55,323 nt of DNA. It comes from Nemertoderma westbladi (taxonomy: Eukaryota > Animalia > Xenacoelomorpha). The notes beneath the pieces are model-generated. The model saw only the letters and a program-made list of their open reading frames with translations. It was not told the DNA's origin and did not search any database. How positions within the stretch are numbered: the stretch's first letter is position 1; each line of letters begins with the position of its first letter. Positions 10,556-55,112 of the stretch are shown here, piece after piece. Both the position numbers and the translations under genes were made by a program. The DNA lies in assembly GCA_032718475.1 (NCBI GenBank), contig JAUCBJ010008990.1, forward strand, positions 1 to 55,323, read 5' to 3'.

Positions 10556-10703
10556 AATTTAGCTGTTCGGTCCATTTCAGTCCATTTCGCCAAGTTTTAA
10601 ACCCAGTTCTGTATTAATTGTAGATCGTGCCTTTTACAGTTTGGTGGAAAATAATTGGAATGTACATGCATTGCAGTTAGAATATATTAAAACTCTTGTG
10701 GTT
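10556..10703 (+). repeat. Right copy of the long direct repeat (TSD) flanking the RTE element
   Basis: Matches 7321-7461 apart from a few substitutions and small indels; starts right after the (TAG)n tail. Confidence 0.9.
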
Positions 10704-10959
10704 TATAACCAAACAAACAAATTACCGGTATTATTGTGATAAAATGTGAGTACTAGTTGTTTCACACTTGTACAATATAATATTAAAATGACTTGGTGCA
10801 GTTCCGATATACAATGTGTACCATAATTCGTGGATTCTTTGGTCATTATCTCTTTATGTAAAAAAGATTCTCATTCTGTAAAAAAACGAAAATTAGAGGA
10901 AGTAAATATTATGCATCACTGAATTATATATTGAAAAGGAATCTGAAAAAGTAAGCATT

Positions 10960-18864: not shown

Positions 18865-18899
18865 CGGATCGTAGTAATTTATTAGTCGGACCTACATTA

Positions 18900-20021
18900 A
18901 TGACGACAAAACAGCTGAGTCAACCTTCGACACCTAAACCTGTGATACACTACGCAAACCCAATCGTATTCAGGCCTTCAAGGCCGTTAGACTCAAACGC
19001 CAACACGCGACCACAAATTCAGTTTACATCGCAATCTACGACTTCGAGGAAGACTTGTGAGCCTACCGAGCAACGGAGACCAGTAGACACGCGACCGTTT
19101 AACCAGTTTACATCGCAATCTACGACTTCGAGGAAGACTTGCGAGCCTACCGAACAACGGAAACCAGTAGACGATGTTTCTAAACGGAATGTTAGAATTC
19201 GGACAACCCAACGGACGCGAGCACGTCGGCCACCGTATCCAGGTGATAGTAGTACTTCGAGCGAATCGGATTACCCGGAACGCGAGGTGTTTAGAACAGG
19301 AGCGGCCGATGAATGCAAACGCGAGCGTTCAACTAATTCCTTTATAGATAATCCTCCACAAAATACACCAACACAGAAAGCGTTACAACCAACGGACGCG
19401 ATCAGTACACAACAATTCGCCGATATAATGCGACCAGTTGTTAACAAGTTGGCCCAGATCGAGGAACGCTTAGAGGAAGTTCAAACTGATAGTTCGAGAA
19501 ACACGGAATTCGAACATACTAGACACCCGAAGCATCCACAAAGGACGGTGCTTTCAGGGAATGTAGAGTATGAGAAAAGACGTCCTGGACAGGGAAAAAC
19601 AAACTCTATTGCTACCCAGGGACGCGAAACTTTGAATGTTGCAGAAGAGATAGCTAAATTCGCAGCCAGACAAGGATTACCGGCGCAGCAACCACCAAAG
19701 TTCTCAGGAAACTCAAAACATTGGCATACCTTCGTGGATTACATCGAATCTCAAATTGCGGCATGCGCTTTTACATCGAGGGAAAAGTTTAACTACCTGC
19801 TTCAAACGCTGACGGGAGAACCGAAACGTCTAGCAGTGACTTTCGTCGGTGTACCAGACGCCTTCGAATTAGCATACGATCGCTTAACTTCCATTTATGG
19901 AGGTACGGTAAGTATGGCCAAGTCAGTAATAGAGGAACTCTGTAAAGGGGGGGCCATTACGAAACCCGTGGACTTACTGAAATTAGCTGATGAAATTAAA
20001 AACGCCATTACGACACTATGA
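18900..20021 (+). CDS. BEL gag capsid-like region (DUF1759-like), ending at an in-frame TGA
   Basis: PPKFSGNSKHWHTF...EKFNYLLQTLTGEP...AYDRLTSIYG; same frame as ORF 20154..25754. Confidence 0.8.
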   Translation: MTTKQLSQPSTPKPVIHYANPIVFRPSRPLDSNANTRPQIQFTSQSTTSRKTCEPTEQRRPVDTRPFNQFTSQSTTSRKTCEPTEQRKPVDDVSKRNVRIRTTQRTRARRPPYPGDSSTSSESDYPEREVFRTGAADECKRERSTNSFIDNPPQNTPTQKALQPTDAISTQQFADIMRPVVNKLAQIEERLEEVQTDSSRNTEFEHTRHPKHPQRTVLSGNVEYEKRRPGQGKTNSIATQGRETLNVAEEIAKFAARQGLPAQQPPKFSGNSKHWHTFVDYIESQIAACAFTSREKFNYLLQTLTGEPKRLAVTFVGVPDAFELAYDRLTSIYGGTVSMAKSVIEELCKGGAITKPVDLLKLADEIKNAITTL

Positions 20022-20153
20022 TCAATTGGACAACTTGACTACGCAAACACTCCTACAGTCCTATTAAAAATAATAGGGAGACTACACCATCGACTTCGTA
20101 GGGAGTGGAGAAAGATCGAGTACCAGCGAGAAGAAACAGGTGGATTTTTAAGA

Positions 20154-25754: not shown

Positions 25755-26419
25755 TGAGGAGTTTACAAATAGATTTCCACGTACCTGTACACTGTAGTAA
25801 AGACAGCGATAGAATTCCATTGTCTTTATATGTGAACATTGAGGGTAGTACCCTTATGTGTCACATAGGAGCGGGATTTGTAGGTATAAGAAATGGAATT
25901 CTACTTGGAACTCACAATATTGAGACATTTTCGAAATTTTAGACAATCCATTTGGATTTGAAAAATTTTAAAATTTTCTCCAGTGAATATATTTCAGGGT
26001 ACAGTCGGGTGGAACTTAAAATTAGAGAAACAAGAGAATGGAAGACTCGCGAGCCTTTCTTAAAATTTAATTAAATTTTACACGGTCTTGTTTCAAAAGT
26101 TACGTCAACAAATAGACTTCCCTATATTTATTACTAACTCTTGACTGCTTATTTTCTGATAATAGTTTGGGATCAAAAAGTGAGTATTTTAGACTCACAG
26201 CCAGTTTAGCCCAAATTCGTTTTTTATTTCGGCAAAAAAAAATTTTAGATAAGAAACAGTGTGTCATTAAAGAAACCCTAGATCTTAGGCTATGGGTAGG
26301 AGGTTAGAGCGTTGTCGAGCCAAAAGGGCAGACGAAAACTCTCACATCTCCTCACAACTAACAATAAACTCTGTTGTATTCCCTCTAGTAGTAATGATTA
26401 TGTAACCATACTTCCAATA

Positions 26420-29400
26420 ATGGCGAAAGGGATACATGGAGAGCCGAGATGAGATGATATCCAAGAGGAAGCAGCAGCTCCATTCAAAAGATTCGGTGCA
26501 AAGGATTACACCATATTCGGAATAAAGGATTTATCAGAAAGTACAGCAAAACTCGCAAAGACTAAATATTACTCGACGGTATTAAAGAGAAGGCAAAATG
26601 CGTTAAGTGAAAGGATCGAAAGTTTACGTAAAACCTTCAACGAACTTTATCCGTACGATGCTTTATGTGATATGGGAGATATCAGTGAAGACCCCGATAC
26701 CGAAATTAGTCGTTTGTATCATACCATGCAATACCTGAAGGCACATGAACGTATGCCTGCGGTACGCGATGAATTCGATGGAATGCATCTTTACAGACGA
26801 ACTCGAGGAGACAATAGAGAAACGAAGGAAGCCTTTTCAGTTTACAAACTTTATTATCAATGTGGTGCTTGTATGCGCGAACAACAAAAGGCGATTCCGA
26901 TGCATTTGAATAAGGAAAATCCCGAACCGATATTGGCGAGGTGTTCGAACCATCAACAACTACGCTACCAGGAAGGAGGGTATCCTTTATCTAATCCATA
27001 TCATTCATTTGCTATGTGTGGACCAAAGGCGGGAGAAATTGTCGTTTGTCCACCTAAGATTGTTGAACCCGATGCATTTGAACTTACGCTGGAAGAGGTG
27101 ACTCAGTCAACCCGCGAAAAGAAAGAAGCTCTTAGCCTATACAGAGCCTATAAGGCTTTCGAGAAAGGTGATATGGAAAAATGGGGCGGAAGACTCGCGA
27201 GCCTACCTTACCATTGGACGTTATTCAGAGACTACAGTTTGCATCCCTGGAAAGGACAAGAGAAATGCAACCGCATAGTACTTCGACTACGACACTCAAT
27301 TTCCCTATTAGTGTACCAGTTCGACAAGACACGACGTATGAAATACCTATTGTGGATCATCCGGAAATCATTTCAAACTTAGAGTTTCTTCCTGCAGTTG
27401 TTCTAAGTGATATGGTTAAGATATATGATTTACGTAGACATATTACGCAAAAGGTCGTGCATAATGTTCCGCCTCATATTCAAGACTTTAGGGAACTGGA
27501 TAGAGCTGGCGCTGATATAGCTCCGAGTAACTTAAGAGGATATCTGACCAGAACAATTCGTTTGTGGATCGGAACAGGAACCTTTGAGTCGGATACAGAC
27601 ATCGCTACGAACTGGCAAGGTAAAATCATTCGCTTCGAGGACGAGAAGGACATAGAGAAGATTTGGCAACCTTCGGAAGAATTATTGGACGAATGGAACA
27701 GAACATTTAGATCGTTTCAGGAAAATGGTTACATGTTTTATGACAACGAGGGCGGCAGCCATCAACAGAGTCTGACTTCCAAGACTATACAAATTAGAGC
27801 GGCAGACGGAGTTCTGCACGTTTTCAGTAGACAAAGGAGCGACAAGCGAATGCCGATACCTCCAGGAAATACCAAGCGGCACCATCTCATCACTAATATA
27901 ATAAAGAAGATGGACCAAGCCTGCGATATTGATGCTAGGATGTTACCGAAGATGGTCAGAAATATCATTTTAGATAAAACCGTTGTAAAGATTGGATCAG
28001 GAGTTAGAGAGGATTTAATTAGCGACTTTGCCAGCATGTCGGACAGTGACGACCGATTACCGACACCTTACGTCGACACCCGACCTCTTATACTGTGGTC
28101 CATAGAACAAGGATACTTCCGTGAGTATGATACTCAGAAGACCGGAACTGGATACATTTCCTACCTGATGTTTAATTGGGATTACAAGGAAAGTAAAAGA
28201 ACAAAGTATATCTAAACGTATGGAGAAGGTGATACTCCAGATAAAAACGAGTTTGAATCACAGCTCAAATGGAGAGGATGCGTGTATTGGGCTATTACTT
28301 CACCTCCAAGGGCGGTACTACAATATTATTTAGCGATAGAGTCATCGGTGAATGTTTGCTTGATCGCCGACATTGTGTCTCGGACTCTAAAACGACATCC
28401 ACTTTGCCTCGGAGAAGATCATACATTCTACGCGGAAGGGAGAATTCATACTGACGTGTTTAGACGATTTCTCGAACCCTTCTACAATTCCGACGCTCAG
28501 TGCAACGCCTTTACTCGAGCAGGATTTAGTATATTTCGAGACGTGTATCTTCGCTGTGCGGGATCTCTTATCGAAAGACCATCTATGTTTACAATATTAC
28601 CTTATGAAGGAGAACGTATCGTGGAGGTTATCGACGAATCACGGCAGACGCGCGCGCCTATCGGTCACTTAGGTGATGATTCCGACTTAACGACGACCAT
28701 CGATGATCCTCTAGAGGAACTTCTTGAGATTGAAAGGAACCTCCCGAAGAAATCTCAGATGGAGATTCGTCAACTTGAAGCAACAGATGCTGTAGTTTGC
28801 ATACAACCTTCTGAAACATACCAACCTATTGATCCAGACGATTATGACTATAGTGTGGGAGGAAGCGCTCGACCCATTGGAGATCTCATATATGAGTGAG
28901 TGTGGTACCCTGCCAATACGATGTGTGGTAAATGTGGTGTCGCTGGACATCATTCGACGAAATGCAGTGGAAACACATTACTACGACTCAACTGATTTGT
29001 GGATGGTGTGGAGATCAAGGGTCCCATACATTTTATACTTGCTGGAGATTTATGGCTCAATGCACATATTGCAATATAAAGGGACATTGAGCATCTGAAT
29101 GCCAACTGCGAGACATACCATACGAACACGAATCTGTAAAATTAGTGCGAAAACTGTTTGATGATTGGGAAGATTTGGCTGACGAACATGTATCGGCGCA
29201 AAGAAGACGGTTCCCAATGAGGGCACATCTTGGATTTTGGGCGGTAAACCCTCAAACTATGATGTCGGAAGGATATATCTCCGCTATGCCACAATATGAC
29301 GAACTAATCGAGGTAGTCGATATTTTGCCTCATGATAGTGGATTTAGAGTCGTGCGCGAATATTTGCTACAGATTCATCCCGATAATAAGAATACATGGA

Positions 29401-29855
29401 ACTTCCAGAAAGTCATTAATCGTATCACATATGGTGAATTCGATCGATTCCGAACAGAAAAGCGGAACAAGGGAGCTTGGTTAACCGTCGCATGGGCGTA
29501 CCGAGCCGCATTCTATTACAATCGTATACGAGCGAGCGTATTCGAGGAAGAGGAGATCCTAGAGGCGACCAACATACCAGCTACTCCGGTTGCGCCGTCT
29601 GCACGCCACCCTCGAGAGGACGGACAGAATAGGATTATAAGGGTTCAGAAAGTGAGCCAACAACTAAAGAAAACTATAAATGTTGAAGAACGAAGGGGAT
29701 ATGAACCGACTATTCGAGTTACTCGGGATATGGTATCACTTCCCAGAGAACCGCAAGGAGGATTAGGCCGCTTCCCGCGCGTTCCCAGACGTTTTGCCAA
29801 CAGTGGATACAACCAGTCGGTCACGAGGAGTCGGACGAGGATTTGGGATTACTAG
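26420..29855 (+). pseudogene. Disrupted accessory ORF of the BEL element: DEDDy-type 3'-5' exonuclease-like domain plus three zinc knuckles
   Basis: FYDNEG (ExoI-like, D 27742, E 27748), TIQIRA, LPKMVRNIILDKTVVKIGSGVRED (ExoII-like), YVDTRPL, W..PP...QYYLAIE (ExoIII-like); knuckles CGKCGVAGHHSTKC 28924-28965, CGWCGDQGSHTFYTC 28998-29042, CTYCNIKGH*ASEC 29061-29102; several in-frame stops and two frameshifts. Confidence 0.72.
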
Positions 29856-30103
29856 AAGGCGAGCTTGTGAGGAAATGGTCGTACCGTCTCCCAACGTCCA
29901 AGGTAAACCAGTGACTCGCCCCATAAGCCCTGTAGTACGAGCCAAGTCGCCTGTACGCAGTTTTCGAGGACGCGGCCGTGCTCAATCCACAAAACGATAA
30001 ATAAAGTGTTATACTTGAAAGGACTAATTATTCCGAACTCGTAAAACTTTTGTAAAGTGGGAAGGAAAGAGTGGACGGAAGACTCGTGAGCCTTTCTTAT
30101 GAT

Positions 30104-30330
30104 TAAATTTATGCAATTTATATTGTTCTAAATTTATGCAATTTATATTGTTCTAAATTTATGCAATTTATATTGTTCTAAGTTTATGCAATTTATATTG
30201 TTCTAAATTTATGTATTTTGTATTGTTCCAATTTTATGAAATTTAGAAAGTTTTATATTTAGAAGGAATTTTATATTTAGAAGGAATTTATATTTAGAAA
30301 GATTTACATTTAGAAAGTGTTATATTTGTA
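30104..30330 (+). repeat. AT-rich tandem repeats in the BEL 3' UTR (25-bp x ~5.5, then ~19-bp units)
   Basis: TAAATTTATGCAATTTATATTGTTC at 30104, 30129, 30154, 30179, 30204; then TTTTATATTTAGAAGGAAT-like units. Confidence 0.85.
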
Positions 30331-30790
30331 GTCATTCCAAACTTTCGCAATTTATTGTTTCGAATATTATGCAATTTATATTTTATAAAGAAGCAGTACT
30401 TGTATTCGCAGTAAATAGAAGGCAAGAGCAGACGGAAGACTTGTGAGCCTTTCTTGTGATTTCATTTGAAATTATTCCGAACTTATGCAATTTGTTTTAT
30501 ATTTAAGTAGCATTTGTACTTGTGATTGTTTGAGTTTATGCAATATTTGAGATGCAATAGATTTATATTGGTGAATTTAATTTAGATTTATATTGTACTT
30601 ACTTAATAAAGCCTTAAATACGTAAAGTTTGAATTTGTAATTATTTTGTATCGAATTATTATGTAAAGGTATTATTGTTAAGATTTAATTTGTAAATATG
30701 TAAGTACGTCCCAAGTATTCCATAATTTGATTTAGTATTGGTGAAAACCGTATATTTTATGCACGATAATATCCTGTTTTCATGGAGCGG

Positions 30791-32692
30791 TATAGAATTA
30801 TATTATCATAAATGCAGTGGATTTTCAAAATTTTATTTTGTTCGAATTAACTTGCTATAAAGATTACATTAAGTCCTCATTTGCATTTACTATATCTATT
30901 TGTATAACATTGTTTAAGTGGTTCAGTAGCTCAGTCGGTTATGCATTAGAAAATCGTTTAGTAGGTGTCGAGTTCGAATCCTAGCAAGTGTGAATTATTT
31001 TTTGTGCTAAGTTTCAACTCATTTGAATTGACCGCTACGATTTAATTGTATCTGCTTAAGGTAGATTAACCAATGCGATTGCAGTTATTAGATAGCAACC
31101 AATGTCGTGCAAGATACGTGTTTGCTGGACCAATGATTATATTTAAAAACCTAGTAGAACTCATAGAACAATCTAGATTTATCTAGATTGTTAGCAGCAC
31201 AAATTTGCTATAAAAGGTGCGATTTTGTTCATTAGTTATTAGATATTATTAGATAGTAACCAATTTAGATAGCGACATTATTTCTTACACACTTAGTATA
31301 ACCTTAATCTTCTTGTTACATTTATTGTATATTAGTTATTGTTTATTTGTAATAAAGTTAGAAAGTATTTGTTACATCTGCTTTTACTATGTTTCACCAT
31401 GGTGAACACCGCTGAAAGACAGATGGCAGGCTAGACATCGGATCGCGGCAATAGACGGGAATATCGGAGGAATGTAGAAAGGAGACAACCCGCAATACCC
31501 ATTCTTAGTTATTCGCCCATCGCCTGAAAGGTTAGACAGCGTTCGATGCCTCGTTACCTAAGCGTAAGACCTAAGATCGAAGGTAGAGGTACTGACACGC
31601 TGTGCGCTAAAAATTACATTTAGGGACTGTACTGTCTTAATTCAGAAAAACCCGCAGTAGACCTTCACATTCCTACGGGAGGAGATCAGGCAGAGAGATA
31701 CTAGTACACAGATAGGACACAGGCACACCAGTACAAGGCATACACATTAGTAGAGTGCAGCAAACTGTACGCCTAACTCATTTGCTAAGTATAGGTGCGT
31801 CGGTGGCCCGTTTGTAGTACAACGGTGTCCATTTGCATTAGAACTTGTAGGCCAGGAAGGGTTACTGTGTTTTTACCTGAATTGAGATTGTACCGTTCAG
31901 GCGGTAGGGCAGTTTACTGCTAGGCGCATATAAATTGAGGCTATTAGGGATACTAACATCTACCGTGTCCCCGCCGACATTCTGATAGGAAGTTGCCGTG
32001 CCCACCTAGGCAACCAAAATTATAGATAGGACGCCAGGCTAGCTATTTTGTAACTGTACGCCTACTGTAGTAAACTAACACATTTCTTCTTAGTATTAGG
32101 GACCTGGTAAATTAAATTGCCGAATTCTGGGCGTAGTATTAACCTTATGCCTGAATTTGAGTCCTGGAAATACACAAAAGGGGAAGGAGCCTTATAATTC
32201 GTGAGTATTGGACCTACAAGCTACAAAATTAGAATATTTGTAAAATGTACACCGGACCCAGTAATTATATATGTGAAGGATCTAAAACTGATTTTGACTG
32301 TTAGAATCAAGACACACGCGCGTTAGGAATTATTTACACCTCAAAATATATAAAATAATTTTTGTCCGTACTGCACTTTGCCCGCTAGTTAGACACCTAG
32401 CTAGCGCCTCTATCTCTCACCCACATATAAATCACACCGCGGCAAAGTATACGAGCGCCCTTAGTCCGTCAGTGAGTCAGCCCGATTTTAGGATTCGCTG
32501 CGCGGGATTTTGTTTTATCGAAGTTTGTCCGTTCGTAGACTGTTTTCTGCCTCACCGGTTATAAGAGACCGATACTGCAATAGATTTGCTTACTTAGAGT
32601 TTACTGTTTTGGTGAGAAGGTCGGATTACGTTTTGATTCACAGACTTTACAGTAAGATATTGCAGGGTACTTTGTTACTGTCTCTTCGAATA
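30791..32692 (+). repeat. 3' LTR (1902 bp)
   Basis: Direct repeat of 14448-16350; preceded by a short purine-rich GGAGCGG (PPT-like) and followed by TSD TCTTT. Confidence 0.95.
30920..31003 (+). promoter_or_regulatory. tRNA-like Pol III cassette in the 3' LTR
   Basis: Same A box, B box and T-run as 14578-14661. Confidence 0.65.
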
Positions 32693-34761: not shown

Positions 34762-37047
34762 TCACCAATCAACCCCATCAAACAGTCCGATGTAGTGGAA
34801 GGGTGTGTCCATGGTTCCCACCACCGACGCCGCGTTTCCCATGAGAATTGCCACCGCCAAGCGTTGCAGCAAAAACTGGTGCGACCGTTGCTCATGGGTC
34901 CGAGCATGAAGACGCGCCCCGACTTCCTGGAGGAAGCTGGCAGTCTCGGGTCCGGGTCGACCAAAGGTCTCAAAGGCCACGGGACTGAAGTAGCAGCGAC
35001 CACGCTCTACCAACTCGCTATACTTCCTAATCTTCACCCGCTCAGCCTCCTCAGCAGCACGGCCACCAGCGATGAGGGTCTGCTGGAGATGACTCGGGGC
35101 GAGGGGATCCGTTACGGTTGCGTCCCAGGCCAATGAGCGGCCGCGGTTCCAAGGCATCACTGTAACCCCGTCAACCCTCTTACCATCGCTCCGACAGAGA
35201 CCTGGGGGCTCAAGGATGGGGGACACCCCGCAGCTGACCAGCGCCCGCCTTACTATATCGTTCAACATAGCGTGGCGGGGATGCCGGCCAGCGCTCCTCT
35301 GGCAGCAGATACCATGGAGACCATCAGCAGCTACCAGGCTACCACAGCGACAGGTATGCGGCTCGACTACCTTACTTCCCAGCCGCATGGCAACGGCGAT
35401 GCGGAACTGGCTGTCATCCAGCTTCAGTCCCAACGACGAGATGGGTAGAGCACTGAGCCAGCATCCGGCAACTGGGTGGTCCAGGGAATTTAACCTAGCA
35501 AGGTCGACTGGGGATGCAACTAGACGCAGCGCTGCGAGGTTAGCCGAGTGGACTGGGGCCACCCACGCACTCTGAGCAGTCGTAGAGGGTAGAGTAGCGT
35601 CCGAAGGGAGGGAGGATATCCAGAACTCCCGGGCCAACTCGTTGGTTGGGCTCACCACCCCCACTGAGTGGAGCAGGCGGTCGGACAGAGAAGAACAGGC
35701 AGCCGCGGAAGCCAGGAAGGCGGATGGTGCGAGCTGCACTGCCGAACTCAGTCCGAGACCGCCCACCCGTGCGGGGAGGCAGGCCTGGTCCCAGGCTGGG
35801 TCGCTGATATTAGTGTTAGCGACTTCCTGCAGGGTACTTCGGAGGATATCGTCGTAGTTCTTAAGTGCTTCAGGGAATAGGAAGCACGGCGCTGTCCGGA
35901 GGAAATAGGTTAGCCGAGGTATGGCAAATGAATTCTTTAGGAGGAAGAAGCCGTGGTGGGCATCTAGTAGAGGTATGCGGCAGGCTAGGGTCGAGAGGTC
36001 CCCTATCTTTGATGCGAGGCAGGATGCTATAGCGGCATCACCAATGGGGGCACCCAGCATTGACAGCTGTTCAAGGGGTGGGTACTTGATACCAGGGCAG
36101 ACTGAGTTGAACTCCAACTGGATACGGGCGCGAGATTCCTCTGTCTCCGGCCCTAGGAAGAAAAGTTCACTCTTCCCAGGGTTTATCCTCAACCCGCACT
36201 TCCCCCCCTCAACAATCACTTCCCGCAGGTCCTGCAGAACCACATGGTAGTCATCCGCCAAGTTACCGTCATCAAGGTACCAGACATTAAAGCTGGACCG
36301 CCTAGCCTGGACGACGGGGTTTACGGTATCACCGAAGAAGGGCGGTCCGTCCGAGTCCCCCTGCTGCACTCCCTCGTCCGAGAGGAGAGTCTGGGATCCG
36401 TGGAGGAGGAAGGATGCCTCCCCGTAGGCCGCTAGAGTGTAGTTATACACGGAGGGGTGCTGGTCGTGGACGGTCTCCAACATGGTATCCCGGCGGATAG
36501 AATTAAAAGCGTTGCTGAAATCTATTTTCAGCAACACTGTCCCAGCCGGGTTCTCCCTCTCCGTCAACGCTCTCACAGCATGTTCTGCGGCTTCCGCTCC
36601 CAGTTTACAACCAATACCTACTTGCACCGACCCATAAGAATGGGTGCGATCCTCCCCCACCAGGCGCCCGGCAAACTTTGAACAGAGTCTCCGTAGAGCA
36701 ACTCCAACAGCGATAGGCCTGATGCCTCCTCCGGTCTTTGTGAACGCGAAGAGGTTCGCCCCGAAGAAGAGGGGACGGATGGCAACCGGCACATCCCCCG
36801 CAATAGTGACGTCCACGAAATGAGAGAGGGTGGAAAGCAGTCGCTCAGCAGCCCCGCCGTTCGTTGGGCTGACAACGTCTTTAAAGATTTGGGGACGCAC
36901 ACCATCTGGTCCTCCTGCACTACCGCAAGGGAAGGACGAAATCAACTTCCGCAGCACCGCGGGGGAGCATGGCTTCGCGGATGAGTTTACTGGCGGTGGG
37001 GGGTCTCTCCGGTCGACGGGCCTGATCGGGTGTTTATCCCGCAACAT
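34762..37047 (-). CDS. Reverse transcriptase + Zn motif + restriction-like endonuclease
   Basis: SAGGPDG, GIRPIAVG, KIDFSNAFNSI, GVQQGD, WYLDDG, GGLGL, CRC..H..C..RH, RVDGVT..PW..G..LAWDAT, E..KIRKY, PVAFETFG. Confidence 0.92.
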   Translation of the reverse strand: MLRDKHPIRPVDRRDPPPPVNSSAKPCSPAVLRKLISSFPCGSAGGPDGVRPQIFKDVVSPTNGGAAERLLSTLSHFVDVTIAGDVPVAIRPLFFGANLFAFTKTGGGIRPIAVGVALRRLCSKFAGRLVGEDRTHSYGSVQVGIGCKLGAEAAEHAVRALTERENPAGTVLLKIDFSNAFNSIRRDTMLETVHDQHPSVYNYTLAAYGEASFLLHGSQTLLSDEGVQQGDSDGPPFFGDTVNPVVQARRSSFNVWYLDDGNLADDYHVVLQDLREVIVEGGKCGLRINPGKSELFFLGPETEESRARIQLEFNSVCPGIKYPPLEQLSMLGAPIGDAAIASCLASKIGDLSTLACRIPLLDAHHGFFLLKNSFAIPRLTYFLRTAPCFLFPEALKNYDDILRSTLQEVANTNISDPAWDQACLPARVGGLGLSSAVQLAPSAFLASAAACSSLSDRLLHSVGVVSPTNELAREFWISSLPSDATLPSTTAQSAWVAPVHSANLAALRLVASPVDLARLNSLDHPVAGCWLSALPISSLGLKLDDSQFRIAVAMRLGSKVVEPHTCRCGSLVAADGLHGICCQRSAGRHPRHAMLNDIVRRALVSCGVSPILEPPGLCRSDGKRVDGVTVMPWNRGRSLAWDATVTDPLAPSHLQQTLIAGGRAAEEAERVKIRKYSELVERGRCYFSPVAFETFGRPGPETASFLQEVGARLHARTHEQRSHQFLLQRLAVAILMGNAASVVGTMDTPFHYIGLFDGVDW

Positions 37048-37714
37048 CGAACAATGTGTCTGGGGTGTCTGGCGCTATGGTGTCCCTGCAGGAAGCCAAC
37101 CGGATGGCCCGCTTTGACGTCACCATCCTCTATCTTCTCAGCAACGGCATTCACAGGCGCGTTGCCTCGACGTGGGCCTGCCTTCTGCGACCCTGCGGCT
37201 CCGGTCGCGGTGGACTGAACCCCACGCGAATGTAAACCCGGAAATCCGAAATCAGCTGGTTGACCTTGGAGGCCAAGGAACGATGATGTTTCTTCCCACC
37301 GTGGCTGGGCGCTGGTAGGCAACAATGCCAAACCAAGAGAAGACATGTCCAGTTGTGAACATTCGTAGGGTCGCCCGCGATTGCAGAGAACAGATCCGAC
37401 AGTAGATCCGCTAAATTGGCCCGCGACGCCTTTGGGATGTGCCGTAGCTGCCGGGTTCTCCAGCCCTTCAGCAGCGCGAGGACTTCCCACTCCGTGGTAG
37501 CGTCACTAACAGTGGGGGGTTACCACTACGTGGTAACCCCCCACTAGATCCCAGGACTGTTGGGGCCGCCCCTGGGGCACCATCTGAACCGGAATACCTC
37601 TGGGAGTGTTTCCCATGGACATGAAGAGGACCATTGAACTTTATCGAGATCATCTTTCCACAAACAGGGCATACTCCTCCGGGGGGACGTGGTCGATCAC
37701 TGGTGGACTAAATT

Positions 37715-40700
37715 AGGGGACCACGACCAGGGGACTGGGACACCCGACCTGGGGACACCATAGACACCCGACCTGGGGACCGGGACACCCGACATGGGGA
37801 CACCCGACTTGGGAACACCCGATCTGGGGACACCCGAATAGGCAACACCCGACTTGGGGACACCTGGCTTTGGTACAACCGATTTGGGGACACTCGCATA
37901 TGACTGGGGGAATCCCCACAAAGCAACTCGCGACCATAGGACACACGACCCGAGTCCTCCCACCTCACTTGACATGGAGACATGCGACCAGGGGACCAGG
38001 ACACCCGACCTGGGGTCACCCGAAATACCCGACCTGGGGACCGGGATGCCTGACCTGGGGATACCCGACTATGGGACACCCGACCTGGGGACCTGGACAC
38101 GAGACCAGGAGACCGGGCCACACGACCAGTGGACCTGGTCACGCGGCCTGGGGACATCCGGCCTGGGGACTGGGTGGCCCGACCTGGGGACACTCGACCA
38201 TGGGACACTCGACATGGGGATACTCGACCTGGAGACACTCGACCAGGGGACACTCGACCTGGGGACACTCGACCAGGGGACACTCGACCAGGGGACACTC
38301 GACCTGGGGACACCCAACTAGGGGGCAACTGACAAGGGTACAACCCACTAGGGGACACCCGTCTTGGGGGGGACACCCGAGTAGGGGCCTCCGGACCATG
38401 GGACACTCGACATGGGGACAGTCGACTTGGGGACACCCGACTTGGGGACACCCGACTTGGGGACACCCGACTTGGGGACACCCGAGTAGGGGCCTCTGGA
38501 CCATGGGACACTCGACATGGGGAGACTCGACCTGGGGACATTCGACCTGGGGACACCCGACAAGGGTACAACCCACTAGGGGACACCCGGCTAGGGGCCA
38601 CCCGACTTGGGGACACCCGAGAAGGGCCCTCCGGACCATGGGACACTCGACATGGGGACACACGACCTGGGGACACTCGACCAGGGGACACACGACCTGG
38701 GGACAACCGACAAGGGTACAACCCACTAGGGGACACCCGACTAGGGGACACCCGACTTGGGGACACACGACTTGGGGACACCCGACAAGGGTACAACCCA
38801 CTTGGGGACACCCGACTTGGGGACATCCGACTAGGGGACACCCGACTTGGGGACACTCGACCAGGGGACACACGACATGGGGACTCCCGACTAGGGGGCA
38901 TCCGCCAAGGGTACAACCCACTTGGGGACACCCGACTTGGGGACAGCCGAGTAGGGGCCCCCGGACCATGGGACACTCGACATGGGGACCGGGACACCCG
39001 ACATGGGGACACCCGACTAGGGGACACCCGACTTGGGAACACCCGATCTGAGGACACACGACTTGGGGACACCCGACATGGGGACACTCGGCCTGGGGAC
39101 ACTCTACCTGGGGACATTCGACCTGGGGACACCCGACTTGGGGACACACGACCTGGAGAAACCCGACTTGGGGACACTCGGCCTGGGGACACCCGACCTG
39201 GGGACACCCGGCAAGGGTAAAACCCACTAGGGGACACCCGACTTGGGGACACTCGACTTGGGGACACTCGGCCTGGGGACACTCGACCGGGGGACACCCG
39301 ACTTGGGGACACTCGACCTGGGGACACTCGACCATGGGACGCTCGACATGGGGACACTCGACCTGGGGACACTCGACCAGGGGACACTCGACCTGGGGAC
39401 ACCCGACCAGGGTACAACCCACTAGGGGACACCCGACTAGGGGCCATCCGACTTGGGGACACCCGAGTAAGGGCCTCCGGACCATGGGACACTCGACATG
39501 GGGACACTCGACATGGGGACACTCGACCTGGGGACACTCGACCTGGGGACACCCGACAAGGGTACAACCTACTAGGGGACACACGACTTGGGGACACCCA
39601 ACTTGGAGACACTCGGCCTGGGGACACTCGACCGGGGGACACACGACATGGGGACACCCGACTTGGGGACACCCGACTTGGGACACTCGGCCTGGGGACA
39701 CTCGACCAGGGGACACTCGACCTGGGGACACCCGACAAGGGTACAACCCACTAGGGGACACTCGACCGGGGGGACACCCGACCTGGGGACACCCGACAAG
39801 GGTACAACCCACTAGGGGACACCCGACTTGGGGACACCCGACTTGGGGACACCCGACTAGGGGACACTCTGCCTGGGGACACTCGACCGGGGAACACCCG
39901 ACTTGGGGACACTCGACCTGGCGACACTCGACCAGGGGACACTCGACTTGGGGACACTCGGCCTGGGGACACTCGCCCTGGGGACACTCGACCTGGGGAC
40001 ACCCGACAAGGGTAAAACCCACTAGGGGACACCCGACTTGGGGACACCCGACTTGGGGACACCCGACTTGGGGACACTCGGCCTGGGGACACTCGACCGG
40101 GGGACACCCGAGTTGGGGACACTCGACCTGGGGACACTCGACCAGGGGACACTCGACTTGGGGACACTCGGCCTTGAGACACTCAACCTGGGGACCCTCG
40201 ACCTGGGGACACTCGACCAGGAGACACCCGACTTGGGGACATCCGGCTTGAGGACACCCGACTTGGGGACAGGGACACCCGACTTGGGGACAGGGACACC
40301 GGACTTGGGGACAGGGACACCCGACTAGGGGACATCCGACTTGGGGACACTCGACCTGGGGACACTCGACCTGGGGACACTCGACCAGGGGACACTCGAC
40401 CAGGGGACACCCGACTTGGGGACACTCGACCAGGGGACGCTCGACTTGGGGCCACCCGACTAGGGGACATCCGACTTGGGGACACCCAACTTGGGGGTAC
40501 CCGACTTGGGGACATTCGACTGGGGGACACTCTACCAGGGGACACTCGTCCTGGGGACACCCCACCAGGGGACACTCGACTTGGGGACCCCCGACCAGGG
40601 AACACCCGACTTGGGGACACCCGCCTAGGGGATACTCGACCAGGGGACACTCGACCAGGGGACATTCGACTTGGGGACACCCGACTAGGGAACACCCGAC

Positions 40701-40830
40701 TTGGGGACACCCGACTAGGGGACACCCGACTAAGGGACACCCGACTTGGGGAGACCCGGCTAGGGGACATCCGACTTTGGGACACCCGACTAGGGGACAC
40801 CCGACTAGGGGACACCAAACTAGGGGAAAT
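37715..40830. repeat. ~3.1-kb GC-rich 15-bp minisatellite (GGGGACACYCGACYW) with higher-order variants
   Basis: About two hundred 15-mers; minus strand reads (RVSP[SG])n or (V[GE]CP[QL])n. Confidence 0.95.
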
Positions 40831-41352
40831 CCGACCAGCGAACAGGGACAAACGGGATGGAGAAACAGTAGCGGGGCCAGGATTACAATACGAAGAGTGC
40901 AATCCAAATCGGAGTCATCGAAGCCCGGTGTTAAAGTTACATCCATTACGTCGTCGAGTTCATCCAGAGTTGAATTCAAGCGCCCCTGCTCACCAACGAC
41001 AGTGGTCTTCCACCTGGGTGAGTGCGCGAGCAAGTAGTCCACGACGCCGTAACCCGAAGTTCGGCAAGACCCGCTGCGGCAAGTGCAGCAGAGCTGGGAA
41101 GGACCCATACGAGAATACTCGAGGTGAAACGTGGAACGAGTACGTGTCTCAACAGGAAATGCCGGCCGCCGGGGCCAGGTAGGTCAGAGAATCAACAAGT
41201 ACGAGAAGCAGATAGCTGACTCAGATTCGAGCAGTATTACCGGTATTATTATATTATTTATTTAATAATCTTATCCTACTTATCCTTAATCTTGAACTAT
41301 TATTATTTTATTATTATTTTTTATATTTTTATTAATATTTCTCTAATTAACT

Positions 41353-41747
41353 ATGTATGGTTTAAATATTGTTAGCTATAACTGTAACTCTGTAAGAACT
41401 GCTCAGTTAATGTCAATCATTAATGTCATTAATTCATTCTATGTAAGAAGTGCGACATTATGCTTCTTCAGGAGCTCCAATTCCCCAAACAAAGAACTTT
41501 CTTTTTTGAACACAATAAACAATGATTTTTGGATCGTGGGTTTTCTACTGCTAACTATTCAGATGGTCTGCGGGTAGGAAGGCCAGCTGGAGGATTAGGG
41601 TTTTTATGGCGAAAGTCCATAACTCACTCTTTTAATATTGTTGATTTTAATGACCCACCACGCATTTGTGGTGCCTCTATTGATCTTTTGAATGTTGGTA
41701 AGTTATTAATTTTTAATGTTTATCTGCCCCATTATTGCCCTGATAAT
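41353..41747 (+). pseudogene. 5' part of a LINE APE endonuclease domain, interrupted by a TIR element
   Basis: NIVSYNCNSVR, CDIMLLQE, GRPAGGLGFLWRK, LLIFNVYLP. Confidence 0.75.
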
Positions 41748-42422
41748 GATAGAGGGCTGTTGCGCTGTCAGTCAGAGAGGTAACAGCCCGTGGGGTAAGG
41801 ATTTACCTCTGGGACCTGTATTAGGCAAAATAGCAGTCGCTGTGTAGGCCCTCCAGTATTGTGCACGGTACAAGACACGAAATTTAGCCCACATCTGTTA
41901 ATAATACACGGTTTCGCGGTACAAGACCATATTAAATTAGACCACCATCTGTAAAATGCTCGCCTGAGTTCAGGAGTTGCACAGATGTCAGGATGTGCTG
42001 ATTCTATATCACCCACTTAGCCCTGGAACTAGACCACTACAAAAACTGATGCGACAGAGCGAGGTACCGTTAGCCTAACATTTCTCGGAGGCTGGTCCGA
42101 TAACACTCAACGCATTGTTTGGTTGGACATTGACATTATTGCATTACAGTGTACATATTACATAGGCCTACTGATTAGTATGGATTGAGAAATTTGATAT
42201 ATTTGGACGTCAATGGATAGGTAGGTTAGGTTTGAGAAACTAATATCATATCCATATTTATGAATATTTATTTATTTGTACTTCCCTCCTGTTTCACTCT
42301 AGCATACTTGAGGCCATTAGGTCCGCTGTTAGAGATAGAATATATGCAACTTAAGACTGCCCGTTCAATAGAAGTGGATTAGGTGGGACTTTGAGTGTCA
42401 GGGGCTAGTGGCTGAGCTGGTT

Positions 42423-42468
42423 AGCGCTACTGATGAGGCCTGTTAGGCTGAAACGTACTTATAGCGCT
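42423..42468 (+). ncRNA. Type I hammerhead ribozyme, unit 1 (variant: G.U at the base of stem II, UUA site)
   Basis: AGCGCTA CTGATGA GGCCTGTTAGGCT GAAAC GTAC TTA TAGCGCT. Confidence 0.75.
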
Positions 42469-42764
42469 GGTTCAACCCCCGGTGACGCGCTCTCATTTTT
42501 TCCACTTCTGAACAAACCCATTATATTACACCTTTAATTACAGTTGCAACAGCTCATCTCCAATTTATTTAATTAATATCACCTGGCAGCAATACTCGAG
42601 CTGAATATTTATTTATTTGTACTTCCCTCCTGTTTCACTCTAGCATACTTGAGGCCGTTAGGTCCGCTGTTAGAGATAGAATATATGCAACTTAAAGACT
42701 GCCCGTTCAATAGAAGTGGATTAGGTGGGACTTTGAGTGTCAGGGGCTAGTGGCTCAGCTGGTT

Positions 42765-42810
42765 AGCGCTACTGATGAGGCCTGTTAGGCCGAAACGTAC
42801 GTATAGCGCT
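42765..42810 (+). ncRNA. Type I hammerhead ribozyme, unit 2 (consensus)
   Basis: Stem I AGCGCTA/TAGCGCT, CUGAUGA, stem II GGCC(U)/(A)GGCC, GAAA, short stem III AC/GU with GUAC loop, GUA site; predicted cut after 42803. Confidence 0.93.
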
Positions 42811-43105
42811 GGTTCAACCCCTGGTGATGCGCTCTCATTTTTTCCACTTCTGAACAAACCCATTATATTACACCTTTAATTACATTTGCAACAGCTCATC
42901 TCCAATTTATTTAATTAATATCACCTGGCAGCAATACTCGATCTTAATATTTATTTATTTGTACTTCCCACCTGTTTCACTCTAGCATACTTGAGGCCGT
43001 TAGGTCCGCTGTTAGAGATAGAATATATGCAACTTAAGACTGCCCATTCAATAGAAGTGGATTAGGTGGGACTTTGAGTGTCAGGGGCTAGTGGCTGAGC
43101 TGGTT

Positions 43106-43151
43106 AGCGCTACTGATGAGGCCTGTTAGGCCGAAACGTACGTATAGCGCT
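43106..43151 (+). ncRNA. Type I hammerhead ribozyme, unit 3 (consensus)
   Basis: Core identical to unit 2; predicted cut after 43144. Confidence 0.93.
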
Positions 43152-43446
43152 GGTTCAACCCCCGGTGACGCGCTCTCATTTTTTCCACTTCTGAACAAAC
43201 CCATTATATTACACCTTTAATTACAGTTGCAACAGCTCATCTCCAATTTATTTAATTAATATCACCTGGCAGCAATACTCGAGCTGAATATTTATTTATT
43301 TGTACTTCCCTCCTGTTTCACTCTAGCATACTTGAGGCCGTTAGGTCCGCTGTTAGAGATAGAATATATGCAACTTAAGACTGCCCGTTCAATAGAAGTG
43401 GATTAGGTGGGACTTTGAGTGTCAGGGTCTAGTGGCTGAGCTGGTT

Positions 43447-43492
43447 AGCGCTACTGATGAGGCCTGTTAGGCCGAAACGTACTTATAGCGCT
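43447..43492 (+). ncRNA. Type I hammerhead ribozyme, unit 4 (UUA variant)
   Basis: Core intact; GAAACGTACTTA weakens stem III. Confidence 0.8.
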
Positions 43493-43787
43493 GGTTCAAC
43501 CCCTGGTGACGCGCTCTCATTTTTTCCACTTCTGAACAAACCCATTATATTACACCTTTAATTACAGTTGCAACAGCTCATCTCCAATTTATTTAATTAA
43601 TATCACCTGGCAGCAATACTCGAGCTGAATATTTATTTATTTGTACTTCCCTCCTGTTTCACTCTAGCATACTTGAGGCCGTTAGGTCCGCTGTTAGAGA
43701 TAGAATATATGCAACTCAAGACTGCCCGTTCAATATAAGTGGATTAGGTGGGACTTTGAGTGTCAGGGGCTAGTGGCTTAGCTGGTT

Positions 43788-43833
43788 AGCGCTACTGATG
43801 AGGCCTGTTAGGCCGAAACGTACGTATAGCGCT
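43788..43833 (+). ncRNA. Type I hammerhead ribozyme, unit 5 (consensus)
   Basis: Core identical to unit 2; predicted cut after 43826. Confidence 0.93.
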
Positions 43834-44138
43834 GGTTCAACCCCCGGTGACGCGCTCTCATTTTTTCCATTTTTTTCCACTTCTGAACAAACCCATTATA
43901 TTACACCTTTATTTACAGTTGCAACAGCTCATCTCCAATTTATTTAATTAATATCACCTGGCAGCAATACTCGAGCTGAATATTTATTTATTTGTACTTC
44001 CCTCCTGTTTCACTCTAGCATACTTGAGGCCGTTAGGTCCGCTGTTAGAGATAGAATATATGCAACTCAAGACTGCCCGTTCAATAGAAGTGGATTAGGT
44101 GGGACTTTGAGTGTCAGGGGCTAGTGGCTGAGCTGGTT

Positions 44139-44184
44139 AGCGCAACTGATGAGGCCTGTTAGGCCGAAACGTACGTATAGCGCT
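44139..44184 (+). ncRNA. Type I hammerhead ribozyme, unit 6 (one stem I mismatch)
   Basis: AGCGCAA CTGATGA GGCCTGTTAGGCC GAAACGTACGTA TAGCGCT. Confidence 0.85.
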
Positions 44185-44498
44185 GGTTCAACCCCCGGTG
44201 ACACGCTCTCATTTTTTCCACTTCTGAACAAACCCATTATATTACATTTTTAATCAAAGCCAGAATTCCAGTACTGGAACCACGATCAACAATTTCGGAA
44301 GTAAAGACTCCATCAACAACAGTCGGGGTTTAAAAAATACAATCGAGGGCAACATTTAACTGGGCGATCATCTATCTGATAGTTGGAAATGAGTGTCTGA
44401 CAGTTGGTATCAGAGTGTCTAATAGTTAGCACCCCATGGGTAAATCATTACCCTATGGGCTGTTACCTCTCTGACTGACAGCACAACAGCCCCTATAG

Positions 44499-44740
44499 CT
44501 GATAATCGCGATGAATATAAACTTTTATAAACGTTTATAAACTGACTTAGTGGGTACTTATATTATAACTTAGTGGGTAAACTAACCGCTCAATACTCAC
44601 AATGTTTATTGATTGATGGTGACTTCAATAATGACCCACCTCTTAATATCTATGTAGAATTTAAACAATGGTGCAGTAGTGTTAATCTCACCGCAGCTGA
44701 TGTAAATGTTGCCTAATAATAGTTACACTTCTGTAATGTT
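44499..44740 (+). pseudogene. Continuation of the interrupted APE endonuclease remnant
   Basis: Resumes after the TSD with DNRDEY and later GDFN (GGTGACTTCAAT). Confidence 0.65.
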
Positions 44741-49639: not shown

Positions 49640-50460
49640 ATATATGTTTGGTTCAAACAAGGAACAATATATGTCAGAAATAAAATTTAGTTTTGATCCA
49701 ATGATTATAGAATTATGTTCTAAAAAACTGGAAACCAAAATAATAATGTTACCAATTAAGATGAAATCGCCCTTTTACAGTGGTCTGTCTAGTTCTTCTA
49801 CAGCACCAACCACTAATCCATTGGATTTCGATTTCGCCTCTTGCACTATTATTCTTGCATCCCGAGAGTTATTTGAACGCTTAAGCTTGTTCATGAAGGA
49901 CTCAAATTTGAATGCAGCCCAATCAATACAACTATATCGTTTGCAAAAGGGTGGAATATGTGTTAATAATTGCATGATAAATGTCAGGGCGTGTTTGGTG
50001 TACATTTCGCTCAACTGCCAGTGAAAGTTGCTAATGGGCATATTGTAGATATATGTCATCCTCACAGAGCTGTTGTGAAGCAAGAATCTGAACTGCAACA
50101 TGTAAACTCATAAGATGCTCGAAGTATCGCTTTGGTACGTAATATGTCTTTCATCAATGGAGATGTATATAAAATGAAGGTCCTGAACTCGGTGGCTTTG
50201 TAGTAATCAATGGAATCAAAGCCCCTTAGTTTTCTGTTAAATAAAAAAAGTTCAGGCTTAGCCTTCCTAGTTTGTAAGGATGCCATTAGCTATCTTCTTC
50301 AAACTCGGCGACAAACAACACGATAATGGAGTATTCCGCAATGATGATTTATTACACCAATATCGAATGAGTTGCTTTACACACCCCAAACAAATGCAAT
50401 GCATATAGTCAGGGGGGATACCAGTCGATATGGGCAATATTGTTGCACAACTACAATACC
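49640..50460 (-). pseudogene. Degraded CACTA/EnSpm-type transposase
   Basis: PPDYMHCICLGCVK, FNRKLRG...YKATEFRTFILY, IYNM, AFKFESFMNKLKR across three frameshifted ORFs. Confidence 0.8.
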
Positions 50461-50496
50461 AATTATTCGCTGTTACCAATTATACTAATTATTATG

Positions 50497-50608
50497 TAAC
50501 TTTTTGTTGGGCACAGCTTTTGCAAAGTCGGCAATGACGTCCAGGTGGGATCGAACTGGTGACCTCCAAGTTGGAAGTCTGACGCTCTAACCATTCAGCT
50601 AGCGGCTC
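50497..50608 (-). mobile_element. tRNA-derived SINE head
   Basis: Minus strand GAGCCGCTAGCTGAATGGTTAGAGCGTCAGACTTCCAACTTGGAGGTCACCAGTTCGATCCCACCTGGACGTCA: A and B boxes present, acceptor stem unpaired. Confidence 0.7.
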
Positions 50609-50841
50609 AGGTAAAAGATAGACCAGGAAATACTATCTGATACATTGTATGTCCGCAATTTACATCCTGATGGCCTCACAACTGTCAATATGTTGCCACT
50701 GCGCTCAACCCTATCGTACCAGTATCTCACTAGTTCGATCCCACCTGGACGTCATTGCCGACTTTGCAAAAGCTGTGCCCAACAAAAAGTTATAATAATA
50801 TGAAACCACTTATTCACCACTTAATATGAAAACACTTATTC

Positions 50842-51395
50842 ACTACAATACCAATTATTATGTGTAGCAGAACTACATTACCAATTATTATGTGTAGCAG
50901 AACTACAATACCAATTATTATGTGTAGCAGAACTACAATACCAATTATTATGTGTAGCAGAACTACAATACCAATTATTATGTGTAGCAGAACTACAATA
51001 CCAATTATTATGTGTAGCAGAACTACAATACCAATTATTATGTGTAGCAGAACTACAATACCAATTATTATGTGTAGCAGAACTACATTACCAATTATTA
51101 TGTGTAGCAGAACTACAATACCAATTATTATGTGTAGCAGAACTACAATACCAATTATTATGTGTAGCAGAACTACAATACCAATTATTATGTGTAGCAG
51201 AACTACAATACCAATTATTATGTGTAGCAGAACTACAATACCAATTATTATGTGTAGCAGAACTACATTACCAATTATTATGTGTAGCAGAACTACAATA
51301 CCAATTATTATGTGTAGCAGAACTACAATACCAATTATTATGTGTAGCAGAACTACAATACCAATTATTATTATGTGTAGCAGAACTACAATACC
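50842..51395. repeat. 30-bp near-perfect tandem repeat, ~18 copies
   Basis: ACTACAATACCAATTATTATGTGTAGCAGA units; A-to-T variant at 50878, 51088 and 51268. Confidence 0.97.
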
Positions 51396-52749: not shown

Positions 52750-54157
52750 TTAAGACTTATTATTGAAAATAATATTGACAGGCGCGTGAAACTGTGCCCC
52801 CTGCAACAAGCTACTCATGAATTCAGACTTTGTTGACGGAATCTCGATATTCGTTTCTTGACGAACTGTATCGACTACTTCGTGACTCTCATTTCCTCCG
52901 CTACTCTTCGAAACTTCTCGCCCTGATACACATTGACTCAATATCGTACTCAAGGATCGCTGAGTAGTAGTCGATGGTCGGATGTAAGACGTTGTTGTTC
53001 CCAGATTCGCATGTCCCAACTGTATTTGGGCAAAATTGGATGGCTGTCCAGAATCAACTATAGCCTGCGCCGCCGTCTTCCGATAACTCATCAGTGTAAT
53101 CTTTCGATTATCTGTTGTCAATCCTGCACGGCCGAACAGATCCCTTAATATAGTAGGGAAGGTGTGTTTTCCAACCGGTTGCATGGTGTACCAACTATCA
53201 TCACGATTGGCCGGTACGGTTGGTTTGGGACGAACCCAAAATGGTGCTTCCTTGTCCATCTTCCCATCTGGAAATCTATGTTTAATGTAACACTCGAATA
53301 GAGTCACAGGACAACAAGTGCAATCTTCGGGAAACTCGAAAGCTTTCACAGGGAATTTTCTAGGAGCAGTAATACCCTTTCGAGCCTTCGTTATCCGCTC
53401 TTTCAACTGAAGATAGAACTTATCTTCTTGGATGCAATAATGTTTCGTAATGTCTTTGACACGCATTTGGCGCATTTCTACGCCAGGTCTTGTCCCAAAC
53501 TGAGTAGTAAGAACTAGATACAGTGTATCACGCAGCTGAAAATCCAAGTAATCCTTTGTCCTTCAATAATCTGAAATCCGACGCCTCTAATGGGTCACTC
53601 GAGTTAGCAAGGTTTCCTTTGCCCGATGCTTTTATTTGGGATAGACGGGCCCGGAGAATTTCTTTGGAACGGCTAAATTCTGGTAATTTAAGGACATCGC
53701 CATGCCCCAAGTCTTTAAAATGACGCAGCAAACCATAGAAGTAACTTCGTAGAGAAGTTGTCTCTAACTTTTCTCCATTTTTCTTCTTGTATTTACGAAT
53801 AAACCCATGAAAATTTATAGCCAGCACTTGAACAGATTGTTTATCTATATCTTCTGAGCATTTAACCAGATGAAGATAATTCTGAAAGGCAGAAACTGAT
53901 TGCCGAGTTGACTCAGTTGTGTTATGATTATGCGTTTCCATTAGATACTGGTCATCATCATCATTGTTTTGAGATAGGCGATTGCAAAAACGATCATCAG
54001 ATGAATTGTGCGGACCACTGACAAGGGGATATGTTTGAGTTTGACTCGCATCTTGATCTTCGACATCCGCTGAAAACATTGCTTCCAAATCACCCAAATC
54101 TGGACACTCGAAGCCTAGGCCTATTAAATCACTAGGCCTAAGCAATTGCGATTCCAT
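52750..54157 (-). mobile_element. Crypton-type tyrosine recombinase (DUF3504-like), with one frameshift near 53530-53547
   Basis: SLRSYFYGLLRHF; FGTRPGVEMRQM (R), RITKARKG (K), CPVTLFECYI, WYTMQPVGKHT, ITLMSYRKT, LGHANLGTTTSY (H, Y); no RT nearby. Confidence 0.82.
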
Positions 54158-55112
54158 CGATTTAACAAGAATTAGACAAAAGAAGTACCGGTACAGGTGG
54201 GCTTACTTCTTTCCTGTAGCCTATTCACTTCGAATCTAACTCTTAACTCTTGGTACCGTACTAACCCAGTAACCAGAGTAGCCTATCAACTCAACACTGC
54301 AACAGCACAACAGGTACCGACCGGTAGGCCTAAAGGCTAGCTTATTTATAGAAGTACAGTCAGTACACAGTAGATATGAAGTAGGCTATATATAGCAGTA
54401 TGCAGTACAGCAGTAGACTGGTAGAAGCATGGCTGCCTGTAAGTGATGAAGTGTGCAGAGTGCCAGTAGTGTGCAGAAGTGTGTACAGGTGTAATGTAGC
54501 CTATTGTGCATAGCATAGTGTTGTAGTGCAGTGTAGGGTTGAATATTCGGGAGGGGGTCTGAATTTTGACTGTCTAGTTTTTTAACGTAATTGTTGGTTG
54601 CTATCGCTTTCGTCCTTCTGGGCTCCTCCCGGAGGCGCACACACGAGGTGGACGTGTTCCCACCACCCTTGGGGCCAGTCCAACTGATGTTTCTTATCAG
54701 ACCATGCCGGAGGGTGGTCCGATGCTTCCCGGGTTCAATTTTCAATCCCCCGATCGCACTGGCACAGCTCGTCGCATGTGTAGCCAGATGGTCGGCTACT
54801 GTCAACTTACTGTGGCCTGACTGTACATTGAGCCAACTCAGAGAGTCAACCGGCAGGTGGACCAGTAGTTAACGACAAGGTGGTCAACATTCGAAGACAT
54901 TGAAAACAAGATATGTAGTCATGCTGAATGCATGAAGATTGATATTCTTAAGGATTTTGATGATCTATTTATCGCTGTTGTCGACCTAGAACGCAGGTTT
55001 AAAATCCTTACAGTTGAATATGAAGAAATGAAAAATGCTGCAGTGGCGAGGGATAATATACCTCAACTACAGGTAGCACAACCTGCAATTAGGGCTGAAC
55101 GCCCAAAATTAA

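Follow-up and report, generated by a model that had tools for sequence, protein, structure and literature searches.

Does a hammerhead ribozyme array that lies between the terminal inverted repeats (TIRs) of a DNA transposon travel with that transposon, or did it enter a single copy once? The question is raised by a locus of the xenacoelomorph Nemertoderma westbladi, contained in a stretch of 55,323 nucleotides (contig JAUCBJ010008990.1 of assembly GCA_032718475.1; the whole stretch is hereafter called the window), in which a TIR element interrupts the endonuclease gene of a long interspersed nuclear element (LINE) and itself encloses a tandem array of hammerhead-bearing units. The initial annotation of this locus had left two routes, namely, that the array was inserted into a pre-existing miniature inverted-repeat transposable element (MITE) of ~770 bp, or that a DNA transposon disperses the ribozyme repeat. 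We consider it probable that the array is a later, one-off insertion of a multimer of a retrozyme without long terminal repeats (non-LTR) into a single MITE copy, and not cargo of the MITE family; that the nesting was a one-off event, whichever of the two one-off routes discussed below produced it, is held with high confidence. The best reading of the order of nesting is LINE, then MITE, then a retrozyme multimer of an RNA polymerase III (Pol III) type that resembles Sm-alpha.

Copies of the element were compared in Logan contigs of public runs, aligned separately to the two halves of the locus. Five public runs (X1 to X5), all in the form of assembled contigs, contain part of the stretch; the left half was compared with X1, X2, X3 and X5 and the right half with X1, X2, X3 and X4. 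X1 and X2 are one sample, and the best-matching run may be the window's own source. Contig depth is taken as a rough guide and not as a copy number (matching long contigs vary 0.44- to 3.5-fold between X1 and X2), rare variants are dropped from the contigs, and all contig counts refer to the matches listed. X4 is used for presence only because it is possibly a cDNA library. No RNA run was listed as containing the stretch, which says nothing about expression. The right half of this copy is missing in X2 to X4, and its left-arm letters are missing in X1; both are gaps of the filtered contigs and carry no information.

The TIR element is 2,751 bp long and is made of a 513-bp left arm (41748..42260), a 1,986-bp array (42261..44246) and a 252-bp right arm (44247..44498), the array accounting for 72% of the total, as the initial annotation had it. 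An 8-bp target-site duplication (TSD), CTGATAAT, flanks the element at 41740..41747 and 44499..44506; the two copies match exactly (8/8), with a chance probability of ~5e-5, or of 0.002 when offsets of ±3 are allowed at both ends. The left TIR (66 bp, 41748..41813, plus strand) aligns with the right TIR (44433..44498, minus strand) over 60 nt at 90% identity, or over 65 nt at 89% (E 2e-17), while the outermost 6 bases are imperfect and unlike between the two ends. Both the ~60-bp imperfect TIRs and the 8-bp TSD noticed earlier are thereby borne out. The longest stop-free stretch within the element is 82 aa. The element is a non-autonomous, apparently non-coding, MITE-like TIR DNA transposon inserted in the decayed endonuclease gene of a LINE, and it belongs to a high-copy dispersed family: in X1 the TIR has a depth of 55,000-78,000 and the left arm of ~8,000-22,000, against 18 for the unique left flank. 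Contigs with other flanks end their match at 44497-44499 (X1, X4), which confirms the terminus of the element, their TSDs lying outside the view. No second copy is found in the window, and a scan of metagenome, genome and viral contigs for the TIR pattern gave 0 matches.

The evidence for a one-off insertion begins at the right junction. At position 44278, in the right arm near the junction, the family letter accounts for 3277 of the 3493 depth in X1 (~94%) and for all of it in X2 (3119/3119), X3 (1117.5/1117.5) and X4 (608/608). Contigs of X2, X3 and X4 begin to match at 44247 and extend upstream by 20, 19 and 109 letters, respectively, into non-array DNA that is absent from the window. The right arm joined to the array is represented by one X1 contig, at depth 216 (6%), and does not occur among the matches listed for X2, X3 and X4. 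The family right arm thus mostly continues into non-array DNA, which upholds the part of the first route by which the array entered a pre-existing MITE; the proposed length of ~770 bp did not stand, since the empty family element measures 765 bp plus at least ~30 bp that family copies have upstream of 44247 and that are missing here.

In X1 the array-joined arm (216) is succeeded by this copy's arm (190) and then by the TIR end on the same LINE flank (203). Because the array-joined arm has the depth of this locus's own flank, it probably does not represent many insertions, as independent insertions would yield separate low-depth flanks; the reading of the X1 depth of ~200 as eleven transposed copies was rejected for the same reason, the LINE flank having the same depth. 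Further support is provided by the left arm, where the letters private to this copy at 41838 and 41859 have a depth of 26.5 in X2 (flank 25.2) and of 9.0 in X3 (flank 5.8) and are, thus, single-copy. An array common to independent insertion sites was not found at the right junction, given the family form without the array and the single-copy private letters.

The relative ages of the two components point in the same direction. Of the 252 positions of the right arm, 11 deviate from the family majority (4.4%; 9 of 186 when the TIR is left out), whereas a comparison of the array units with the majority among them gives 21 deviations in 1975 positions (1.06%; Fisher P=0.0005 against the right-arm divergence). 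The array therefore looks younger than the transposon copy that contains it, an argument which presumes a copy initially identical to the family majority and an array whose units are not being homogenised.

The array (plus strand, 43% guanine plus cytosine, GC) comprises 5.8 units of 341 bp with a pairwise difference of 1.2-2.4%, and the hammerhead core is present in 6/6 units, at 42430, 42772, 43113, 43454, 43795 and 44146. In unit 3, which may serve as the example, a tRNA-type A box (43092..43103) precedes a minimal type I hammerhead motif (43104..43153), composed of CUGAUGA, a 5-bp stem II, GAAA and a palindromic stem III, with a predicted cut after 43144. A tRNA-type B box (43152-43161) and a T6 run (43179-43184) complete the arrangement (43152..43184); all these features lie on the plus strand, and the A box, the B box and the T6 run are found in 6/6 units. 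The palindromic stem III is intact in 4/6 units, and the predicted fold is a double-hammerhead dimer. Rfam gave 0 matches at the gathering score and, below it, weak Hammerhead_3 matches on 5/6 units (E 0.6-5.7), while ARAGORN reported 0 genes. The order of A box, B box and T run occurred in 0/5000 shuffles, the pattern having been defined after the unit had been viewed. By its size, GC content, hammerhead and copy number, the unit fits the animal non-LTR retrozyme type, its self-cleavage and a circular RNA being putative. With an A and a B box in each, the units also answer to the description of an Sm-alpha-like Pol III hammerhead short interspersed nuclear element (SINE), and their transcription by Pol III is putative.

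The hammerhead sits between the A and B boxes (42409-42501, and likewise in each unit), at the place of the tRNA anticodon arm. After the predicted cut, the monomer would begin with the B box and finish with the A box, which leaves a whole promoter to tandem or permuted copies only; the T6 run after every B box would need read-through. In X5, a run labelled as another organism and by our guess an RNA library, one unit contig of 371 nt wraps around (341+30) with ~97% identity to 42290-42601, the arms being absent; a circle and a collapsed tandem array would explain it equally well.

Relatives of the unit are dispersed on their own. Unit depth in X1 is 140,000-330,000, against 18 for the flank, and pieces in long unique contigs mark a dispersed high-copy family. 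A scan of metagenome and viral contigs for the hammerhead unit pattern gave no match. Unit pieces at 84-90% identity occur alone in contigs of 374-3385 bp, with no arm piece among the matches listed, and at least 10 contigs each in X1 and X2 continue beyond the unit end at 44246 into long flanks that do not resemble one another. In 13 of the 17 variable columns of the array a single unit deviates, and at 42391 and 42522 all six units share letters where 93-99% of the run-wide depth differs, which points to one template. The proposal that the array is dispersed as transposon cargo is thus not supported in view of the mostly non-array right arm of the family, the single-copy left-arm letters, the occurrence of unit relatives in arm-free contigs and the younger array. 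TIR copies without the array and arrays without TIRs, named beforehand as what would speak against cargo, were both observed as far as the contigs permit a test.

For the favored one-off insertion, the following course of events may be envisaged. A transposase supplied in trans would have placed the MITE into the LINE by cut-and-paste, and the MITE copy would then have aged to ~4% from the family majority. Elsewhere in the genome, Pol III read-through of a tandem locus would have provided a transcript from which dimeric hammerheads released the 341-nt monomer, which was presumably circularised. A borrowed reverse transcriptase, probably Penelope-like, may have made about six rounds of a single template; the resulting multimer would have entered the AT-rich interior of the MITE, replacing at least ~30 bp without target duplication. 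The units would since have drifted by ~1% each, and no subsequent transposition of the array-loaded element is seen. The retrozyme part of this route resembles steps that are put forward in PMC7761336 and 10.64898/2026.07.22.740005.

Several observations weigh against this reading. There is no TSD around the array, the longest word common to both of its ends being 4 nt; no Penelope partner was found, though no search aimed at one was made; and the unit RNA folds no better than shuffles, either as the 116-nt stretch from A box to T run (z -0.07) or as the circular 341-nt monomer (z +0.76); a rod-like or tRNA-like fold is therefore not claimed. The left junction (42255-42289) is masked, which leaves the family sequence after the left arm unseen, and at the right junction 30 of the 109 upstream letters are visible, so that an array further inside family copies is possible. 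The depth of the right arm in X1 climbs from ~3,500 to 11,000-16,000 after 44349, and most copies therefore differ upstream, in sequence outside the view. In the two X1 junction contigs the shorter side comprises 30 and 27 letters, below the 31-letter bridging rule, and no contig joins arm to flank directly, the link consisting of matching depth and the window's assembly. Furthermore, the right half with its flank (44217-44575) has a depth of 190-216 in X1, against 18 for the left flank (41200-41775), a step that this reading does not account for and that could reflect either library bias or a duplicated right half together with its flank. As for the age argument, gene conversion could keep the units of the array alike, and a rarer source could have given rise to the MITE copy.

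The alternative that survives best is also a one-off nesting, at the level of DNA, and we regard it as possible but rather unlikely. One or two units would have entered, or been copied in, during the repair of a break or an excision gap, and the array would then have grown or been homogenised by unequal exchange. In its favor, the array lacks a TSD, family sequence has been lost where array and arm meet, and two bases from the right junction the unit and the arm share the 6-nt word TTTAAT; such features are typical of repair-type joins. Two units deviate together in four variable columns, which also suits this origin, and local amplification by unequal crossover is favored for retrozyme arrays in 10.64898/2026.07.22.740005. 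However, the mostly private changes and the shared rare letters in the 5.8 units fit one-step copying of a single template at least equally well, and the right end of the array coincides with the end of many dispersed units.

In the remaining alternative, a MITE subfamily would carry the array by cut-and-paste, this copy being a member of a small loaded subfamily or one from which a spacer that once parted the array from the right arm has been lost. The array is enclosed by two intact TIRs and an intact TSD, the depth of the array-joined arm in X1 is ~11-fold that of the left flank, and the unit depth in X1 is 10- to 30-fold that of the arm, sufficient for many elements; internal tandem arrays are also reported in MITEs, foldback elements and Helentrons (PMC4079207, PMC3879986 and PMC7492417). 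If true, a Pol III-type retroelement with a ribozyme could also spread by a second route, at the level of DNA and without reverse transcription, for which the literature searched gave no description. We nevertheless find it very doubtful, as the array-joined arm equals its own flank in depth (203) and not many flanks, the private left-arm letters are single-copy in both X2 and X3, the array-arm junction is not among the matches listed for the three other right-half runs, and the apparent age of the array is about a quarter of that of the arms.

Turning to the transposon itself, its 8-bp TSD fits hAT. The terminal consensus of hAT elements is Y-A-R-N-G, and that of P elements C-A-N-R-G, with a TSD of 7-8 bp. 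The ends defined by the TSD start with GATAG and CTATA and do not match the hAT consensus; with respect to the P consensus, the left end is one change off and the right end requires a gap, the family termini not being visible in the contigs. Ends shifted inward to suit hAT termini were rejected because the TSD is then lost. No transposase for the TIR element was found, and between hAT and P no choice can be made on present evidence. The element is like non-autonomous hAT and P elements in its 8-bp TSD, TIRs of tens of bases, apparent lack of coding capacity and high copy number, but unlike them in that its two termini differ in the outer 6 bp and neither exactly fits the consensus.

Within each TIR there is a further, short inverted pair, GGGCTGTT ... 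AACAGCCC (at 41754-41789 on the left and at the corresponding mirror position on the right), which may form a hairpin or provide paired transposase sites. Two short subterminal direct repeats lie in the left arm, near 41869 and 41919. One X4 contig (depth 411) begins within the right TIR (44457-44497) and exits into another flank. The 21 letters at its head presumably are a cDNA template-switch adapter, which they resemble; X4 may thus be cDNA, and the TIR may contain an outward-facing transcription start at another locus.

The host of the transposon is an open reading frame 2 (ORF2) endonuclease of a LINE of the apurinic/apyrimidinic endonuclease (APE) type, an identification made through its homologs. 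Its 5' part (41353..41747, plus strand) runs from an ATG at 41353 to the motif NVYLP, with one frameshift and one stop, and its 3' continuation (44507..44713, plus strand) has GDFN at 44618, two stops and two small local duplications. A search with the 74-aa stretch that precedes the element gave 198 proteins at E<=0.001, and among scanned homologs the domain Exo_endo_phos is found in 7/7, with RVT_1 as well in 5/7. When the 30 best homologs were compared by tblastn, 28 matched the left flank and 6 the right flank; those that match both resume within a few residues, as illustrated by P0004 (7-107, then 111-161) and P0010 (23-124, then 127-181). The reading frame of the LINE is preserved once the element and one TSD are removed, and, with homologs that span both flanks, this frame continuity substantiates the splitting of the APE motifs described at the outset.

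NVYLP and GDFN are 48 codons apart here, against 37 in 73 of the 86 homologs that have both motifs (150 examined), and the 11 extra codons (33 bases) are due to the two local duplications in the right flank, of 10 and 23 bp. By themselves, the four LINE fragments gave 0 Pfam and 0 PDB matches and a single Atlas lead to Exo_endo_phos (0.91, 21% of members). No reverse transcriptase (RT) or further LINE ORF follows the endonuclease in the window. With a frameshift, three stops and nothing past the endonuclease, this LINE copy is dead.

DNA elements with tandem arrays and hammerhead arrays with Pol III boxes are each already known separately. Like the animal non-LTR retrozymes of PMC7229834 and 10.64898/2026.07.22.740005, the present array has tandem units within 150-450 bp and below 45-50% GC with a type I hammerhead each, few units per array, thousands of dispersed relatives and a minimal stem III that would need a dimer. 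It differs from them in lying within a MITE and having no TSD of its own, although TSDs are optional in such retrozymes according to PMC7229834. A and B boxes occur in every unit here, whereas metazoan retrozymes seem to be promoterless according to PMC7761336. Cleavage, circles and a Penelope partner, features of the animal retrozymes, are for this array matters of inference.

With the schistosome elements Sm-alpha and Sj-alpha, as they appear in PMC6765202, PMC2576457 and PMC8490949, the array shares a unit of ~335-341 bp, a type I hammerhead, Pol III boxes A and B and the requirement of tandem copies for propagation. In Sm-alpha, as it is drawn, the promoter comes first and the hammerhead follows, whereas here the hammerhead lies between the boxes and the predicted cut parts them. 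Stem III is minimal and palindromic here, in contrast to Sm-alpha, and the likeness meant here is one of description. Tetris/TIR-220 (PMC4079207), DTC84 of Donax (PMC3879986) and the Helentron-borne arrays of oysters (PMC7492417) are reported to be likewise non-autonomous DNA elements dominated by an array. In those cases an array belongs to the regular make-up of the family, while here the family right arm is mostly array-free at the junction and the repeat forms a ribozyme-bearing family of its own. No description of a hammerhead array within a TIR element was found in the literature searched, to which most subscription journals and Repbase entries did not belong, so that a prior description is possible.

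Other elements were noticed elsewhere in the window. An LTR retrotransposon at 14448-32692, with 1.9-kb LTRs at 98.5% identity, has a long pol-like ORF, which by its motifs looks to be of the BEL/Pao type, and ~3.4 kb of additional ORFs at 26453-29855. On the minus strand, three ORFs are assigned presumptively, again by motifs, one at 34762-37519 to an RT with a restriction-like endonuclease, one at 49775-50107 to a fragment of an EnSpm/CACTA transposase and one at 52750-54202 to a Crypton-like tyrosine recombinase. Directly upstream of the LINE fragment, at 38178-40838, a 15-bp repeat of ~177 copies is open in several frames for hundreds of codons. A 75-bp inverted pair at 96% identity (50488-50799) overlaps a minus-strand stretch near 50540-50610 that is tRNA-like and of SINE type, and is adjoined by a 30-bp tandem array (50842-51395).

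The evidence makes the present case a chance nest and not a system. As a three-layer nest of LINE, MITE and retrozyme array, the locus is of modest use. With an intact family interior, it would become a rare pre-insertion sequence for a retrozyme array, and such a site would show how an array enters DNA, here with target loss and no duplication. The hammerhead placed between the Pol III boxes is arguably a more interesting feature than the nest itself.

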